Assembly: GCF_011745625.1 (NCBI RefSeq)
Contig: NW_027191458.1
Location: 186,001-250,000 of the forward strand
Length of the DNA stretch: 64,000 nucleotides
Direction of reading: 5' to 3'
Source: Cladosporium halotolerans
Taxonomy: Eukaryota
The notes beneath the pieces were generated by a model, which was not told the DNA's origin, searched no databases, and saw nothing but the letters and a program-made list of their open reading frames with translations. Shown piece by piece: positions 2,861-55,300 of this stretch (position 1 is its first letter; every line of letters begins with the position of its first letter). The position numbers were made by a program, and so were the translations under genes.

Positions 2861-3155
2861 TGTTTCTCCCTTTTGTCCGAATTTCTCGCGCTCTAGACTG
2901 TCTGTTTGGGTAATCCGTAATTAGTATCAGGCTGTGACACTGGAAATCAGGATGGCGTTCGGGTCACAATTACTTTAGTTGGAATAATTGGAACAAGTCT
3001 CAAGAAGGGCACTTCAGACTCGCTCAAACACCGTACACAACATGTCATCGTAGTATTAAGATCTATACGTCTAAGCGTGTGTCACAGCAATATATGCAAC
3101 CCGTCTCCATCGTCATCAAGATTACCTCCTCTCAGCCTGACACTCTGACATCTCT

Positions 3156-3818
3156 TCACCTCCCCTCCGCAACATCCTTGACCCTCGCCTCAAACGCCTC
3201 AATCATCTTATCCGCCACCATCGGTGCCATCACCGCGCTCACGCTCGCCAACCGTGGCTCCGCAAACTCAAACTCAACCTTCAAGCTAACCTCCGTGCTC
3301 TCCCCCCGCGGCTCCAAACTCCACCTCGTCGCCAACCTCTTCAGCACCCTCTCATCCCTCGTCGGATCCCCCTCCACCGGCCCACGCGCACTATGATGCG
3401 CGACCTCCTCATCCGACAGCGCCGTCTCGCTCTGCCCGGCCACAGCCTCGACAACCCTCTCCGGCGCGCAGTAAACGCGGCTCCAGAAGGCCTCGCTCAG
3501 GCCGCCATTGAAGCCGATCTGCAGCTCCGCTTCCTCGGGGTAGCGCTTGCCGTCTGCGGCGGTCGGGGCGGAGGTCTTGGTCACGCGCGAGGAGCGGCAG
3601 TAGGGGATGAAGGCGCTGTAGGAGGCGACGTCGGAGATGGTCTGGTAGATGACGCGGGCGGGGTAGGGGAGGGTTCGCGAGGCGGAGATGGTTTGCGGGC
3701 CGGGGTTGGGGAGGAAGTTGGAGAGGAAGGTGCGGGTTTGTTGGTGGTGGTGAGGGTTCGGGCGCTGGATGAGTGGTCGGAAGGTGTTGAGGAAGGGTCG
3801 GAGGGTTTTGGTGGCCAT
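3156..3818 (-). CDS. COQ10: Coenzyme Q-binding START-domain protein, mitochondrial
   Basis: Arg-rich, acid-free presequence; RTLPYP..IY..ISDVASYSAFIPYC..S motif; C-terminal VADKMIEAFEARV. Confidence 0.87.
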   Translation of the reverse strand: MATKTLRPFLNTFRPLIQRPNPHHHQQTRTFLSNFLPNPGPQTISASRTLPYPARVIYQTISDVASYSAFIPYCRSSRVTKTSAPTAADGKRYPEEAELQIGFNGGLSEAFWSRVYCAPERVVEAVAGQSETALSDEEVAHHSARGPVEGDPTRDERVLKRLATRWSLEPRGESTEVSLKVEFEFAEPRLASVSAVMAPMVADKMIEAFEARVKDVAEGR

Positions 3819-47539: not shown

Positions 47540-49378
47540 ATGGGACTCTTCGTGTTGGAAGACAGACACCTGGAGCATGTGCCTGGTACGGCGACGCTGG
47601 ACGATCTGGACGAACAGAATGCAGGCGCGCAAGAGCATGGTATACATGGAGACCTCAAGAAGAGCAAGAACGGCACAATACTTGTACCGCAACCTAGCGA
47701 TGACCCTAACGGTGGGTGCAAATGCCGTTCCACCGCGCAGGCGATATGTATCGCCTCACCTTCAACGCGCGACTGACATCCAGATTATCCAGACCCTCTC
47801 AACTACCCTCTCTGGCGCCGCGACTTGATCACTTCAATCCTCTGTCTCGCTTCTGTCATTGCTTCTACGCTCTCACCCCTCTTGGCAGCCAACACTCTCT
47901 CCATGGTCCTCTACTACAACAGCCCCGCTTCACCTGGTGATCCGCGCCCACCCCAGCGCTCTTTCACCGACGTCGCTCTGCTGACCGGTCACCACCTTCT
48001 CGGCGTCGGCGTCGCAGGTTTCGTCTTTGTGGCCTCTGCTCGGATATGGGGCAAGCGCCATCTGTACCTGCTCGGCACGGTGATAATCATCGTCAGCTCC
48101 GCCTGGGCCGGCGCCTCAGGGCGCAACTATGGCAGCCTGCTCGCGGCACGCTTCTTCCAAGGCGTCGGACTGGCCCCTTTTGAAGCCCTCGTCAACGCCA
48201 GCGTCGGCGACCTCTACTTCGTACACGAGCGCGGGAAACGCATGGCAGTCTCCAACCTAGCAGTCTTCGGCGGCGCCTTCCTTACGCCCGTCATCGTGGG
48301 CAAAATGACCGCCTCGCTCGGCTGGCAATGGACGCACTACTTCGTGGCGATCTTTGCAGCCGCCATGCTGCCCCTCCTATTCCTGCTCGTGCCAGAGACG
48401 GCTTTCAAGCGCGACGCGAAACTCGACACCGACACCGCCATGATCACCGCCTCCACCCCAGACACCACCCACACCGACAAACGACCCCAAACCGCCACCA
48501 CGCCCTCCTCACCCCCCAACTCCCCCCCACCCCGCCCCGTCCTCTCCCTCCACCACCCATTCTTCGCCCCCCGCCTAACCCCCACGCCCTTCCCCAAACT
48601 CCTCCTCCGCCCCTTCCCCCTCTTCCTGCACCCCTCGATCCTCCTCTCCTGCCTCCTCCAAGGAACCCTCATCGGCTGGACCGTGCTCATCGGCATAGTC
48701 CTCGCGGCCATCATGATCGGCCCGCCCCTCTTCTTCAACGAAGTCCAAACAGGCTACATGTACACGGGCGCGGCGCTCGGGGCGCTGCTGGGCTTCGTGC
48801 TCGCGGGCGCGCTGGCGGACAGCGTGCCGCGCTGGCTCGCCAAGCGCAACAAAGGCGTCTTCGAGCCGGAGTTCCGGCTGCTGCTCGTCGTGCCGCAGCT
48901 GCTGCTGGGCTGCGGCGGGCTGTACGGGTTCGGGGTCACGGCGGCGGACACGGGGCGGTACGGGTGGTTCTGGGCGGACTTCTGCTTCGCGCTGGTGGTG
49001 GCGGGGATGGTGCTCGGGGCGGTGGCGAGCGCGCTGTACGTCGTCGACGCGCACCGGGAAGTCGCGGTGGAGGGTTTCACGTGCCTGCTGGTGTTCAAGA
49101 ATGTGTTTTCGTTCGGGCTGACGTTCAGTGGGTATGAGTGGCTTGTGAGGGGGGGCGTGAAAGAGGTTTTTGTGGCGGTGGGGAGTGTGCAGGTGGGGAT
49201 TTGCTGTTTGGCGGGGGTGTTGTGTGAGTGCTTCTTTTCTTCATTTTGTCTTTTCTTGAGTTACCGTGGTTGTTGAGGTGTGTGCTGACATACGGTGATC
49301 CACGCAGACGTCTTCGGCAAACGCAACCGCTCTTTCTTCGCGCGGCACGACATCCTCGACTTCTTCCACTTGAAATGA
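47540..49378 (+). CDS. MFS transporter, HOL1-like (DHA1-related); exons 47540-47711, 47793-49223, 49308-49378
   Basis: HVPGT, ILVPQPSDDPN-DPLN, WGKRHLYL, VGDLYFVHERG, PET, GVFEPEFRL, FKNVFSF, YVFGKRNR; both introns keep the frame. Confidence 0.9.
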
Positions 49379-49465
49379 CCGTTCCATAATACAACAAGCG
49401 ATATGCTACAAATCTATTAATAAACAAAATCTATCCCAAAACACCCCCTATCCCTTTCCCATATA

Positions 49466-49613
49466 TTACAACTTCGACCTCAAAACCTTGACAACAAAAT
49501 GCGGGCCCCTCGCCGCGATAGCCTGCTCGGTCGCCTTGAGCACCTCGTGCACGTCCATAGCTCGTAAGGGTGCGGAGTCGTCTTCGCTATTGGAGTCTGA
49601 GGCTTGTCGGGAT
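49466..49613 (-). CDS. GPD1: Cryptic alternative terminal exon of GPD1 adding 48 aa ending in PTS1 (-SKL)
   Basis: Donor GTGAGT at 50068, branch CTAAC at 49641-49637, pyrimidine tract and TAG acceptor at 49614. Splicing is in frame and ends ...VVKVLRSKL-TAA. Confidence 0.8.
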
Positions 49614-50064
49614 CTAAGAGGGGAGAGAGGGGAGACGTTAGCGAGGTGCAAAAGGAGAAGCCAGCGTTGCAGGGCGAGGGGTGTGGAGGAGACGAGACGA
49701 GACGGGGATGGAGAGGCTGGATTCCTGGCTGGCGGGGCTCGAGTCTTGCGAGCAGCGACGAGCGAACAAACGAGACGGAGACGAAGAGAAGTTATGAATG
49801 AAGGAAAGACGGCTCGTTCAGTCATATGTTCGTGCGTGAAGCTTGTGTTTGCGTTTTTCATTGTGTTCGTTTGTCTCGTTTGCCTTGCCTTGCTTTGCCT
49901 TGCCTTGTCTCGCATCGTATGTGCATGCCGTCTGGCAGCGTCTCCCGCCGATGTCCCGCGTCTCGCGTCTCCTGTCTCCACTCCTGCTCTTCCGTAAAGC
50001 CATGATAATGCATGCACGCATGTCGTCAAATGTCAAACAAGCAACATCGGGGGAAAATCAGCAC

Positions 50065-51576
50065 TCACTCCATCTCCCTCTGGCCCTCCTCGATCAGATC
50101 CGGAATATCCTTCGGCTCATTGACGCCCTCCAAAATGTTCCTCACGGCCGTGAAAAGCGGGAACTCTCTCTCGCGGCCCTCCTTCTTCAAGAATGCATAG
50201 ACCTCGTGCGCCGTGCTCGTGCCCTGCAGCTTCTGCCCGTTCAGCTCCCGCGCCTCGATCTCGTCGATGCTCTTGCCCTCAGCGACGCTCATCTTGGCGC
50301 AGCGGAAATTGCGGCCGCCGGAGCACGACGTGATGAGGTCCGCAACGCCGCAGGACTCCTCGGTGAAAGTCTCCGTGCGCGTCGAGGCGCTGAAGAAGGC
50401 CTTGCCGAAGCGCACTTCCTCCATGATGCCGACGCGCATGACGGCGGCCTTGGCGTTGTCGCCCCAGCCGAGGCCGTCGACCCAGCCGGCGGCGAGTGCC
50501 ACGACGTTCTTCAGGGCGCCGCCGAGCGAGACGCCCGCGACATCGTGCACCATGCGCACGTGGAAGTAGGGGCGGTGGAAGAGCTTCTTCATGTTGGCGT
50601 GGTGCAGGGGCGGGAACTCGCTGGGGAGAGGCTGGAGTTTGGGGCCGGAGGTCTTGAGCTTCTTAGACTCGGGCTCGGCGCCGTTGAGCTGCGTGAGGTC
50701 GAGAGAGCTGGCGTGCGGCGTGCCGACGGGCGAAGGGTGCTTGCTGTCCATCTTGGGCGGGTCGTAGGCGACGGTCGTCTCGCTCCACTTCTCCTGCGCG
50801 ACCTCGTTCGCGATGTTGGCGCCCGAAAGCGCGCCGCAGTAGATGCCCAGTTCGCGGCCGATGGACTCGGAGAACAGCTCGCAGCCGCTGTCGTTGACGG
50901 CCACGCCCTTGATGCAGCTGATGCCGCGGGCGTAGGGGACGATCTTGCCGACGATGCTCTGGCAGGTTTTGGCGATGAACTGGTGGGGAAGGTTAAAGAC
51001 GAGGATGGTGGCATCCTGGACGGCCGTGGCGAGGTCGGGGTGGGCGACGATGTTCTGGGGCAGCGCGATGCCGGGGAGGTACTTGACGTTCTCGTGCAGG
51101 CCGTTGATCAGCTCGGTGAGCTTGTGGGGCTTCGTGCAGAGCGAGGAGCCTGCGTCGTAGTGCTTGCTGTTCTTGGGGATGCTGTATTCTTCCTCAAACA
51201 CCCACATGCGGACCTCCTGCTCGAACAGGTCCGGGTTCTCCTGCACGTTCTCGCCAACGACCTTGGCGATTGTGGTGCCCCAGTTGCCAGAGCCGACGAT
51301 AGCGACGCGGTGCTTCTTAGAGTGCACGCCGAGGCCGGCATTGTTGTTACTGTTGCTCGCCATATTGAGGAACCGTGCTGTGTTAGAGAATCGTGGGAGG
51401 GAAACAGAGGGGTAGGCGAGGAGAGGTCGAGCTCCCGGCGAGCGAAAGGTTGAGGAACGCGATAAGGAGCTGGAGCTCTTGTTGAAGCAGGTGAATCGAG
51501 CAGCAGACGGTGTATGTGTAGCGGTGTTGGTGATAGTGGTGGAAGAGAAGAGGCGTGTGTGTCTCAGCAGCGGCAT
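50065..51576 (-). CDS. GPD1: NAD-dependent glycerol-3-phosphate dehydrogenase; second in-frame ATG at 51363
   Basis: [78 protein letters not shown]. Confidence 0.97.
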
Positions 51577-52315
51577 AAATGGAAGAGTAACAGTAGCAGG
51601 CGCAGCTGCTCTCGCTCGTCGCGCCTTCCTCCTAGGGCGAGGGTCGATGGCGTCGGGCGTCGTTGAGGGCCAGAAAATCTGCGGGCCTGCGCGCCCTGCA
51701 TGACGTTGGACCGAGGCTGCAGCGGCGCGCGCGCGTGGTGCGCCCCTTGCAGTCTGACCACCGAGCCACGAGAGCCACTCTTCGCTTGGCCCGTCTATTC
51801 CGGGCGAGAAAGGGTGCCTGGGTGATGATCTATTGCGTGGCGAGACCTGTCGCTTTGACGTGTCTCGTGACAGGACGGGATGTCACGCTGGCCTATACCG
51901 GAGGATGTACCTCGCCTTAGCCTGCATGCATGCATGATAGAGATCGCCAGACCTTACCTCAGCCCTACAGAGACCCGGTACTCGGCATGATGTATAATCG
52001 CCTATACCCGCATCGCTCTAGATCACGGCAACGAGCAAACCCTACATAAGCGACGACCCGCAGGCTAAGCTATACCAACAATTCGAAGCCACTCAATAGC
52101 CGACGAAGTGTTCCTTCTAATATGAGTAAAAAATGTAGTTACTTGATACACAACACGACCAGATGAACCGCAGACCTCGGAGTCCGGATCTAAGTCTAGA
52201 AATCTATAAAACCAAGTAGGTAGCATCTGAGATATGGCCCCAACATGATCCGGCCTAGATTGCTCCCTTCCGTCTTCGCTTCTTTTCTTTCTACGAATCG
52301 CTTCAAAATACAATC

Positions 52316-55300
52316 CTACTCAGCCTTGGACCTCACCTGCTTCACCTCCGCCTTCTCCATGAAAAAGCTCCTCTCCGCCAACTTCAGCAGCTCATCGATG
52401 AAGATGATCGGCGCGCTCCACCACAGAACAATCTTCCACTCGCCCCAGCCGAGCGGCACGATGCCGAAAACGCTCTGCAAGATCGGCGTGTAGAGCAGGG
52501 CGAAGTGCAGCGCCATGGAGAGCGTGATGGCGTAGACGAGGATCATGTTCTTCCAGAGCGGGAGGGTGAGGAGGGACTCAGAAGACGAGAGGGCGTTCAT
52601 GGCGTTGAGCATTTCGATGACGACGAGGATGGACAGCGAGACGGTCGAGGCGGCGCGCGCGGAGCTGTCGGAGAAGATGTGGCAGCCGATGGAGGGGAAG
52701 ATGGCGCTGCAGCTGTGGAAGTGGGTCTGGTATGTATGTTAGCAAGAGTGGTGGGTAGATGGAGGAGGCTCGTGTTTACTTACCAACTGGTAGAAGGAGA
52801 TGTTCGGGCCGTGCTGGTAGTACATGAACCACCAGGCGTAGCCACCAACAGTCGCCAGACCGACGTAGGTGCCGATGACCATGTATCTGAAGAAGAGCCA
52901 GCCGCTGATGAGAGGGTCGTCACGCTTTCGCGGCGGGCGGTTCATGACATCGTGATCCTTCGGGTTGAAGCTGAGCGCGGTAGCGGGCAGACCATCGGTG
53001 ACCAGGTTGACCCACAGGAGCTGAACAGGGATGAGAGCCTCAGGCATGCCAATAGCAGCGGTCAGGAAGATAGAGACGACCTCACCGATGTTGGAAGAGA
53101 TCAGATAGCGGATGAATTGCTGAGTGTTGTTGTAGATGCTGCGACCCTCCTCGACGGCAGATTCAATCGTGGCGAAGTTGTCATCGGCAAGAACCATGTC
53201 GGCGGCGAGCTTGGCGACATCAGTACCGGTACCCATGGCAACGCCGATGTCACTCTTCTTGAGAGCAGGAGCGTCGTTGACACCATCACCGGTCATAGCG
53301 ACAACCTCACCAGCAGACTGCAGAAGATCGACAAGCTTGCTCTTGTGTCCAGGCTCAGTACGAGAGAAGAGAGAAGCGGTACGAGCAGCCTTGAGCTGAT
53401 CAGCCTCGCTGAGAGAATCGAATTGACGTCCAGTAAAACTCTTGCCAGTGAGATCTTCCGTGGGGCCAAAGACACCAATCTGTCTGCAGATAGTCTCGGC
53501 GGTGTTCTGGTTGTCACCAGTGATGACGACGACACGAATACCAGCCTGGCGACACTTGACGATGCTGTCTGCGACCTCCGGACGGGGCGGGTCGAGCATG
53601 CCAACGAGACCAAGAAGGGTCATGCCCTGCTCCAGTTGCTGGTATTCCTGAGTGCTCTTCGCACGCTTGGCCAGATCCGAGGTGACATTGTCGATGCTAG
53701 CCAAAGCCATGACACGAAGACCTTGCTTGCCGTACTCGACAACTTCGGTGTTTAGAAGTGAAGCCAGCTTATCATTCAGAGGAACACGCTTGCCGTTGCT
53801 ACCAGTGAGACAGTGAGTGCAGCGGTCGAGGATCGATTCCGGCGCACCCTTGACGAGGAGACGCTGACCTTTGCCGCCATTGACGAGAACAGACATGCTC
53901 TTGCGGTCTCTAGAAAATTCGAAAGTCCTAAGTTTCTCGGCACGCTTGGTGTATTCAGCGCTGGCGAAGTGGCGGATTTGCTCGGGTCCGAGCTGAGCCT
54001 TGGTCAAGTTGAGGGTTGCATCAGTGGTGCCAATCTTCTCCGCGAGAGTCCTGAGAGCGCCCTCGGTGGGCTCACCAATGTTGTTGTATGTCTCAGTCTT
54101 AGGGTCGTAGGCGAGTTCAGCGTCGTTGCAAACCGCAGCAACCTCGGTCATCTGGGCGACAGTGGTCGAAGTAGCAGCAGGGTGGTCGATGACCTTGCCA
54201 GCCTTGGAGACCGCACCGATAGGCGCAAAGCTAGTGCCCTCGACATCCAGTTCCTCAAGGTCATTGCCAGCCTCATTGACGTACACGATCTTGTTCACGC
54301 TCATCTGGTTGGTGGTAAGAGTGCCGGTCTTGTCAGAGCAGATCACACTACAACTGCCGAGAGTCTCGACGGAGGGCAGGCTGCGCACGATCGCGTTCTT
54401 CTTCGCCATAGTCCTAGTACCGAGGGCGAGGCAGGTGGTTATGACGACCGCGAGACCCTCAGGAATAGCAGCAACACCAAGCGAGACGGCGATCTTCAGA
54501 TAGTAGATCGCACCCTTGGTCCAGTTACCTCCAAAAGAGGGGTCGTTGAAATGACGGATGTTGATCAGCCAGACGAGGATGCAGATAGCGGAGATGACCT
54601 TGGCAAGCTGATCGCCGAAATCGTTGAGCTTCTCCTTCAGAGGTGTGGGCTGCGAGATCTGGGCAGTGATGCTTTCGTGGATATCGCCAATAGCGGTGTT
54701 GGTGCCAGTCAGGACGACGATAGCGCGGGCATGTCCAGTGACAACGGTGGTGCCGGAGAAGAGCATGTTGATCTGGTCCTGCTTCACAGCCTGCTCGTCC
54801 TTGATCGCATCCACATCCTTACCAACACTTTCACTCTCACCAGTCAGGATAGACTGATCGATGCGGAAGCTGTTGCTGCTGATGCTCAAGACCCTACAAT
54901 CGGCGGGAACACGGTTGCCGACTGCGATATCCACGACGTCACCGGGGACGAGATCCTCAGCCTTGACAGATTTGATTGTTCCATTGCGAACGACCTTGGC
55001 GTGGTTCGCGCTGTACTCTTGCAAGGCCGCAATGGCCTTCTCAGCCGACGATTCCTGGCTAACGCCGACGACGGCGTTCAAGATCAAGATGGTGAGGATA
55101 ACGGCGGGGTCGACGAAGGCGGTCCATCCCTCCTCCTCTTCAAAAAGCGCGAGGACGAACGAGATAGCAGCGCTGGCCAGGAGAATGATAACTAGCTGAT
55201 CTTTGAATTGTTCGAGAACGAGCTCCCACAGGGGAGTAGGCGGTTCCTCGGGGATAGCTGTTGGTACATTAGCAAATGCTTCTTATTGTTCCCAAGATTG

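Follow-up and report, generated by a model that had tools for sequence, protein, structure and literature searches.

The gene considered here lies in a 64,000-nucleotide stretch of the Cladosporium halotolerans genome (contig NW_027191458.1, positions 186,001 to 250,000; hereafter the window, in which position 1 is the first letter) and encodes, on the minus strand, a glycerol-3-phosphate dehydrogenase (GPD) that we call GPD1. Its 432-residue product carries both the NAD-binding N-terminal domain PF01210 (E 8.6e-42, 143.2 bits against a Pfam cut-off of 23.1) and the C-terminal domain PF07479 (E 2.3e-43, 148.2 bits against a cut-off of 25). The protein matches 5989 homologues, of which the 432-residue P0003 is 100% identical; those at 64-86% identity are named glycerol-3-phosphate dehydrogenase, and among the matches listed the nearest named relatives are Dothideomycete enzymes, for example from Zasmidium and Baudoinia, at 75%, with other proteins reaching 84-86%. 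The coding sequence (CDS) ends ATG GAG TGA GTG, with the stop codon inside GA/GTGAGT, and beyond it lie the remaining signals of an intron and a hidden last exon that ends in SKL, the canonical type 1 peroxisomal targeting signal (PTS1).

51363-50065, minus strand: GPD1 CDS, short isoform, 432 amino acids (aa; P0002), with ATG at 51363 and TGA at 50067-50065
50068-50063, minus strand: 5' donor GTGAGT; the upstream exon closes with GA at 50069, and bases 2-4 of the intron are the stop TGA
50068-49614, minus strand: optional intron, 455 nt, phase 2; absent from X1 record 1, kept in X1 record 2, X2 records 6 and 7 and X3 record 14 (sequencing runs described below)
49641-49637, minus strand: branch point CTAAC, 27 nt upstream of the acceptor
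49635-49617, minus strand: pyrimidine tract, 19 nt
49616-49614, minus strand: acceptor TAG, the first AG past the branch point, in frame
49613-49466, minus strand: hidden last exon, whose first base finishes a Glu codon and whose next 48 codons end VLRSKL, with the stop TAA at 49468-49466 (P0001)
49465-49407, minus strand: distal 3' untranslated region (UTR) of long transcripts, reached by the X1 spliced contig to 49423 and by an X2 contig to 49407; it overlaps the 3' end of a convergent transporter gene

Removal of the intron joins GA (50070-50069) to the A at 49613 in a GAA (Glu) codon, and the extension made by splicing amounts to 49 residues, this one split Glu codon and the 48 codons of the tail. 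The spliced reading closes with S-K-L and then TAA, a tripeptide of the PTS1 form [SAC]-[KRH]-[LM]. When the intron is kept, the reading terminates ...REME at the ancestral C-terminus: tail-less orthologues, in the 28 gene models checked of at least 120 listed and in the metagenome loci described below, terminate ...DIPDLIE plus 3-8 residues, near the end of the GPD1 short form. Because their C-termini lie no more than a few residues from its own, the short form is ancestral in length. The unspliced message is predicted on this basis to encode a complete GPD enzyme of ancestral length, and the SKL tail is best read as an addition arising in one subclade. That the stop overlaps the donor is unremarkable and no proof on its own, because a phase-2 intron with a GTRAGT donor automatically carries an in-frame stop; the telling point is that, left unspliced, the reading stops where the tail-less orthologues do.

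RNA evidence comes from the assembled contigs of four runs (X1, X2, X3 and X19), aligned to positions 48900-52000 of the window at 90% likeness. X1 is the only run recorded as RNA, a metatranscriptome, and X2 and X3 carry the label of RNA only as a guess; X19 matches the compared stretch throughout, letter for letter, and is possibly the source DNA. One X1 contig (record 1, 242 nt, depth 8.11) places its letters 3-30 on 50096-50069 with no mismatch and its letters 31-221 on 49613-49423, and the joint at 49613/50069 omits exactly 455 nt, with GT..AG ends (CT..AC on the plus strand) and no letters between. A second contig (record 2, depth 6.3) extends unspliced from 50096 to 49922, inside the intron, and a third (record 3, depth 14.8) is the CDS contig, with 50069 as its exact end. 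The two branch contigs share their start at 50096, and their summed depth (8.11 + 6.3 = 14.4) may be set against the 14.8 of the CDS contig. This trio is the expected pattern of one assembly path dividing into a spliced and an unspliced branch.

The other two runs contain the unspliced form. X2, whose cover is limited to the transcribed span 49407-51389, crosses the donor unbranched in record 7, while X3 carries the GPD1 intron whole in record 14, a contig of 1585 nt that runs from the tail exon to the CDS with no branch. X3 is RNA, because the 84-nt intron of the neighbouring gene at 49224-49307 (GT..AG) is spliced out in the same contig. The unspliced contigs of both runs extend through the intron into the tail exon, and hence at least some unspliced RNA uses the distal end. 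The unspliced message is real, being the sole assembled form in two of the three samples and, on contig depth, roughly equal to the spliced form in X1. Within the limits of contig data the pattern looks like alternative, not constitutive, splicing, and the spliced share seems to vary between samples, which would fit a regulated choice.

These results agree with most of what the initial annotation had claimed for the locus from the window's letters. It had placed the donor at 50068 over GAG-TGA, the intron at 50068-49614, and the CTAAC, pyrimidine tract and TAG ahead of the exon, and every coordinate was re-read and matches; the reading frame and the 48-codon -SKL peptide that splicing was said to add on removing the stop match as well, and the RNA contig junction is exact. 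The check it had suggested across 50069/49613 finds that exact GT..AG joint in an X1 metatranscriptome contig of a close relative. Its proposed choice between intron retention and splicing is borne out in X1, where spliced and unspliced contigs are both present; in X2 and X3 only the unspliced form is assembled.

Inside the intron an A-rich imperfect repeat of caaggcaaag-like units occupies 49871-49921, and the X1 and X2 contigs break there. The depth of X2 is 108.7 on the CDS side of the repeat and 12.4 on its far side, although the repeat was skipped in the alignment and contig depth cannot rank parts of a gene. The repeat could be a proximal poly(A) region, which contig depth cannot show.

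The intron might instead be constitutive, with only the long -SKL form functional and the short form an unspliced precursor, genomic DNA in the libraries or a habit of gene models. The in-frame stop in GTRAGT, being automatic for phase 2, needs no selection, metatranscriptomes can contain DNA, and a short terminal exon set off by a long intron would escape gene callers. Against this, X3, which is RNA by its neighbour's spliced intron, holds the GPD1 intron whole and X2 crosses the donor unbranched, the two X1 branches are similar in depth (8.1 and 6.3), and the unspliced reading is a complete enzyme of ancestral length. We consider a constitutive intron improbable.

Relatives of the locus were gathered by searching JGI metagenome contigs for the C-terminal 144 residues of GPD1, with 2.5 kb of flank kept, yielding 80 loci at 60-89% identity, and the tail exon was sought in these by tblastn with the tail and then with a profile built from the tails. 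A tBLASTn search of this kind had been suggested by the initial annotation, and it returned the tail exon in 7 of the 80 metagenome GPD loci, in each case downstream of GPD1 and on the same strand. Six of these (L001-L006) are whole and the seventh (L012) is cut by the contig end; L003 and L004 are identical in sequence over the GPD1-tail region. In all seven the CDS ends GAG-TGA-GT, with the donor G/GTGAGT over the stop, and is followed by CTAAC or CTGAC, a pyrimidine tract and a first AG in frame with the donor. The introns of the six complete loci measure 258, 290, 222, 222, 243 and 219 nt, against 455 nt in the window, and the tails are 38-48 codons long, with length differences of whole codons only. 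Donor-like stop contexts also occur among more distant loci, in L009 (G-TGA-GT) and in L035 and L054 (G-TAA-GT); despite these, no hidden exon combining a branch point with a PTS1 in frame was found in those three loci.

Four of the tail-bearing loci have tandem acceptors 3 nt apart (caag/tag or taag/cag), both in frame: L001 at 3124-3129, L002 at 3220-3225, L005 at 3179-3184 and L006 at 1273-1278. Either acceptor could be usable in these loci, giving tails that differ by one residue.

Comparison of the tails by the Nei-Gojobori method points to constraint on the peptide. The pair L001-L002 shows 18.8 synonymous and 7.2 non-synonymous changes (dN/dS 0.027), L005-L006 shows 11 and 2 (dN/dS 0.04), L002-L003 shows 14.0 and 10.0 (dN/dS 0.11) and L001-L003 shows 10.0 and 9.0 (dN/dS 0.18). 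Against the window the synonymous sites are saturated (pS 0.80-0.94), with pN at 0.36-0.39, and the nucleotide identity of the exon exceeds that of the intron in 15 of 15 pairs. Closer to the window, the variants of X1-X3 are known in part, with 120 further differences beyond those listed; among the listed ones all 10 indels fall in the intron (49633-50034) and none in the tail exon or CDS, the tail-exon substitutions at 49505 and 49559, present in all three runs, are both synonymous third-position changes, and 24 of 25 CDS substitutions are synonymous. Constraint on the opposite strand cannot explain the conservation of the tail, because the CDS of the convergent neighbour ends at 49378. Together these comparisons indicate that the tail is a protein-coding exon in the proposed frame, joined to the GPD1 donor and under purifying selection. 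Because an RNA junction, a layout repeated in seven loci and purifying selection in the exon's own frame coincide here, the arrangement of stop, donor and hidden exon is beyond chance, and we hold that the spliced SKL isoform is very probably real.

The tail itself is divided in its conservation. A favourable PTS1 context combines an accessible C-terminus with basic residues around -4 to -7, and the signal needs roughly 12 residues. In the six complete relatives' tails an R at -4 is invariant and a K or R stands at -7. Conservation spans about 31 residues from the C-terminus, beyond what PTS1 would require, and 15 residues of the tail are invariant (A18, M19, V24, K26, A27, E29, R35, G36, P37, H38, V41, R45, S46, K47 and L48). 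An AlphaFold model of the tail alone, built on a 6-sequence alignment, has a mean pLDDT of 78, with low values (51-70) over the first 20 residues and two confident helices at 21-35 and 37-47 (pLDDT about 90); an isolated peptide on so small an alignment makes this model weak either way, giving secondary structure only. The helices, if formed, may hold the signal clear of the enzyme or have an additional role.

That additional role might be the whole of it: the splice would be real and the tail a regulatory, oligomerisation or binding module, with SKL masked or only one feature among several. The reach of conservation to 31 residues upstream, with its invariant A18, M19, V24, K26, A27, E29, R35-H38 and V41, the two confident helices of the isolated-tail model and a peptide that matches no known family all lean this way. 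However, the RSKL terminus is invariant in all six complete relatives' tails, with the residues just before it varying conservatively, and direct AKL, SRL and ARL ends on other fungal GPDs point to peroxisomal targeting as a recurrent selected trait. Such a role and peroxisomal targeting are in any case not mutually exclusive, and we give a tail with no part in import little chance.

Searches for the tail outside GPD loci returned almost nothing. It has no Pfam family and no ESM Atlas look-alike, and no proteins of similar length share words with it; the single match among 1.84 billion representative proteins is P0123, of 64 aa. Residues 1-44 of P0123 are a prohibitin fragment (matching PDB prohibitin chains at E about 1e-13), residues 37-64 are 86% identical to the window tail and end VLRSKL, and the two parts meet at a shared EVLKA; no prohibitin was found in the window. 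P0123 may be a chimera that arose, in assembly or in cDNA, where the two parts have a short word in common, or it may represent a second genomic context for the exon. The near-lack of relatives fits, as far as such searches suggest, an exon recently born from flanking DNA. That the tail is an independent micro-gene of about 30 aa, starting at Met19 and ending SKL, or part of some other transcript, with the GPD1 junction as noise or a chimera, is suggested by the invariance of Met19, the strongest conservation running onward from there and the corresponding last 28 residues of P0123 standing behind a prohibitin fragment, not GPD, but is very hard to credit when in every complete locus and in the window (L012 keeping its signals) the consensus branch point is followed by a first AG that keeps the donor's frame, when the stretch from acceptor to Met19 varies by whole codons only (18, 10, 11, 12, 8 and 7 residues), and when the donor over the stop is retained in all and the RNA junction uses exactly these GT..AG sites.

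Several observations weigh against an alternatively spliced, peroxisome-directed GPD1 and have to be set beside the evidence above. The junction is supported by one contig from one run, and its shorter side of 28 nt is below the 31-nt bridging threshold. The Logan assembly uses 31-letter words, for which reason 28-30 nt is probably the most that a branch contig can share. The spliced X1 contig also has 10 mismatches to the window over 191 positions, and because of these the junction must come from a close relative, a strain or a species, and not from this genome. Contig depths, moreover, are poor measures of abundance, which applies to every depth given here. The spliced form was not found among the X2 and X3 contigs; because contig assembly drops rare variants, missing spliced contigs do not amount to an absence of splicing, and these two runs show only that the unspliced form is dominant. 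Among relatives, neither tblastn nor the profile found the tail exon in the other 73 of the 80 loci, including L007 at 86% identity, which confines it to a small clade. None of the 28 homologue gene models has the tail at its C-terminus, and a database search found no longer protein (85-2000 aa) that contains it. Finally, the last residues of the tail are helical in the isolated-tail model, whereas a PTS1 must be accessible.

On this balance we favour, at a probability of roughly 0.78, the reading of GPD1 as an alternatively spliced pair of cytosolic and peroxisomal forms, with import and the redox-shuttle role as its inferred parts. If the intron is kept, translation would stop at the TGA within the donor and yield the 432-aa enzyme, which is taken as cytosolic. 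If it is removed, the stop would be lost and the enzyme would gain the 49-residue extension, comprising a poorly conserved linker of about 20 residues and a conserved part of about 30 that is predicted to be helical and ends RSKL. Pex5 would then recognise the tail and carry the enzyme into peroxisomes, where GPD would re-oxidise NADH by making glycerol-3-phosphate from dihydroxyacetone phosphate (DHAP) and so form one arm of a redox shuttle, as yeast Gpd1 does via its type 2 signal (PTS2).

Other routes to the peroxisome were also considered. Neither the 503-aa N-extended reading of GPD1 nor the short form matches the PTS2 pattern (R/K)(L/V/I/Q)xx(L/V/I/H/Q)(L/S/G/A/K)x(H/Q)(L/A/F), used in the form in which it is printed in PMC10526880, and the loose pattern R/K-x6-[HQ]-[LAF] was not found in the first 120 residues of the N-extended reading. 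Read-through of the TGA would add 12 residues ending FDI before the next stop, with no PTS1. Elsewhere among the 80 metagenome loci a strict PTS1 stands directly at the GPD C-terminus in nine: AKL in L025 and L064, SRL in L033, L034, L053, L056 and L076, and ARL in L073 and L074, these C-termini having been called by a rough script without gene models that is least exact where an intron interrupts the last 25 residues. Some fungi thus appear to hard-wire the PTS1 that the tail-bearing clade makes optional, and peroxisomal GPD appears, from these termini, to have been favoured by selection several times among fungi, each time by its own route, in keeping with the PTS2-dependent Gpd1 shuttle of yeasts (PMC3798809, PMC9549241, PMC10526880).

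The N-terminus of GPD1 offers a second possible switch. An in-frame ATG at 51576 on the minus strand (51364-51576) would lengthen the protein by 71 residues, among which there are 0 Asp/Glu, 9 Arg/Lys and 24 Ser/Thr; this acid-free extension resembles a mitochondrial presequence. In L001-L005, L009-L011, L023 and L025 comparable acid-free extensions, 56-84 residues long, are likewise open, and those of other loci are shorter or less clean; N-terminal extensions are included in relatives' gene models of 477-540 aa, and the X3 RNA contig extends to 51612, past the ATG at 51576. The conserved extension could mark a third, mitochondrial form of GPD1. A broader scheme, in which two switches (the upstream AUG and the optional PTS1 intron) serve three compartments and the tail, newly born from 3' flanking DNA, forms a two-helix module with a part to play beyond SKL, is tentative, and on the whole we doubt it. 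In such a scheme the module would, for example, gate exposure of the signal or dock on the enzyme. A form bearing both signals could, by analogy with the dual-signal proteins presented as tethers in PMC10906886, act as a tether between mitochondrion and peroxisome.

The closest parallels are the cryptic PTS1 signals made by alternative splicing in Ustilago maydis GAPDH and Aspergillus nidulans PGK (Freitag, Ast and Boelker 2012, as described in PMC3798809 and PMC9549241). A table in PMC3798809 gives splicing-made PTS1 for these two and for Yarrowia lipolytica malate dehydrogenase (MDH), and read-through for PGK and TPI; in that table Gpd1 has only PTS2 with phosphorylation, in S. cerevisiae. 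As with GAPDH and PGK, one gene here gives two messages that differ at the 3' end, the PTS1 is on the spliced or extended form only, the enzyme is otherwise a cytosolic NAD-linked or glycolytic one, and the proposed role is in the balance of peroxisomal NAD and NADH. The marks of such a system found at GPD1 are two RNA forms (the spliced one known from a single contig of a close relative, its shorter side 28 nt), a PTS1 on one of them only and a conserved extension. The differences are that the enzyme is a GPD of a Dothideomycete clade, that the intron is long (455 nt, and 219-290 nt in relatives), and that the exon encodes 48 residues with a conserved helical part of 30, more than a bare PTS1 tag. 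A full-text literature search, whose coverage leaves out most subscription journals, found no paper on a PTS1 isoform of GPD that arises by splicing, and the 2012 Nature paper and its supplements may list more enzymes.

Within its own family, S. cerevisiae Gpd1 is peroxisomal through an N-terminal PTS2 (Jung et al. 2010, as cited in PMC3798809; see also PMC9549241), and PMC10526880 describes import of Debaryomyces hansenii Gpd1 by the same kind of signal; the initial annotation had likewise set S. cerevisiae Gpd1 apart as a PTS2 protein, in agreement with what PMC3798809 and PMC10526880 say of it. The yeast and Cladosporium enzymes share a family and would share a dual cytosolic and peroxisomal location and a place as one arm of an NAD(H) shuttle beside Mdh3, but the yeast protein relies on an N-terminal PTS2, Pex7 and control by phosphorylation, whereas GPD1 would rely on a C-terminal PTS1, Pex5 and RNA splicing. 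The malate dehydrogenase of Y. lipolytica, with alternative 3' splice sites 4 nt apart (as given in Kabran et al. 2012, PMC3372373, and in PMC3798809), is another dehydrogenase of a redox shuttle in which splicing decides on the PTS1 form; in that enzyme the frame changes when the acceptor moves by 4 nt, whereas here a whole terminal intron is kept or removed. Aspergillus nidulans IdpA is sent to mitochondria, cytosol and peroxisomes by alternative transcription starts (Szewczyk et al. 2001, as described in PMC3798809) and would be a parallel of one gene serving three compartments if the N-terminal extension of GPD1 is used, although all IdpA forms bear the PTS1 that is optional in GPD1. Mammalian LDHB and MDH1, whose PTS1 forms arise by stop-codon read-through (PMC8919083), are likewise NAD-linked dehydrogenases with a PTS1 concealed past their annotated stop, but it is reached by translational read-through and not by splicing, and read-through of the GPD1 TGA yields no PTS1.

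Two further genes flank GPD1 in this part of the window.

47777-49378, plus strand: convergent transporter-like gene, labelled as of major-facilitator type from its translation only, with its stop at 49376-49378
52739-55282, minus strand: long open frame upstream of GPD1 that contains CSDKTGTLT and looks like an exon of a P-type (SERCA-like) cation ATPase, a label likewise taken from the translation

It is the last intron of the transporter (49224-49307) that is spliced in the X3 contig, and the same gene lies downstream of GPD1 in L001-L003, as antisense translations indicate. Because its stop is only 87 nt from that of the tail exon, the 3' UTRs of the two genes must overlap, and antisense interplay of the transporter with the distal GPD1 message is possible.

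Peroxisomes cannot freely exchange NAD(H) and depend on shuttle dehydrogenases. The routes by which these enzymes are imported vary by lineage and are often invisible in gene models, and for animal GPD1 the peroxisomal route is still termed unclear (PMC8919083). Because the exon is in none of the 28 homologue models checked, peroxisomal proteomes based on annotation will miss isoforms such as this one. With this locus GPD joins the enzymes that acquire a PTS1 through splicing, and the trait arises here by way of an exon new to a single fungal clade, while in other fungi the PTS1 is fixed directly on the protein.

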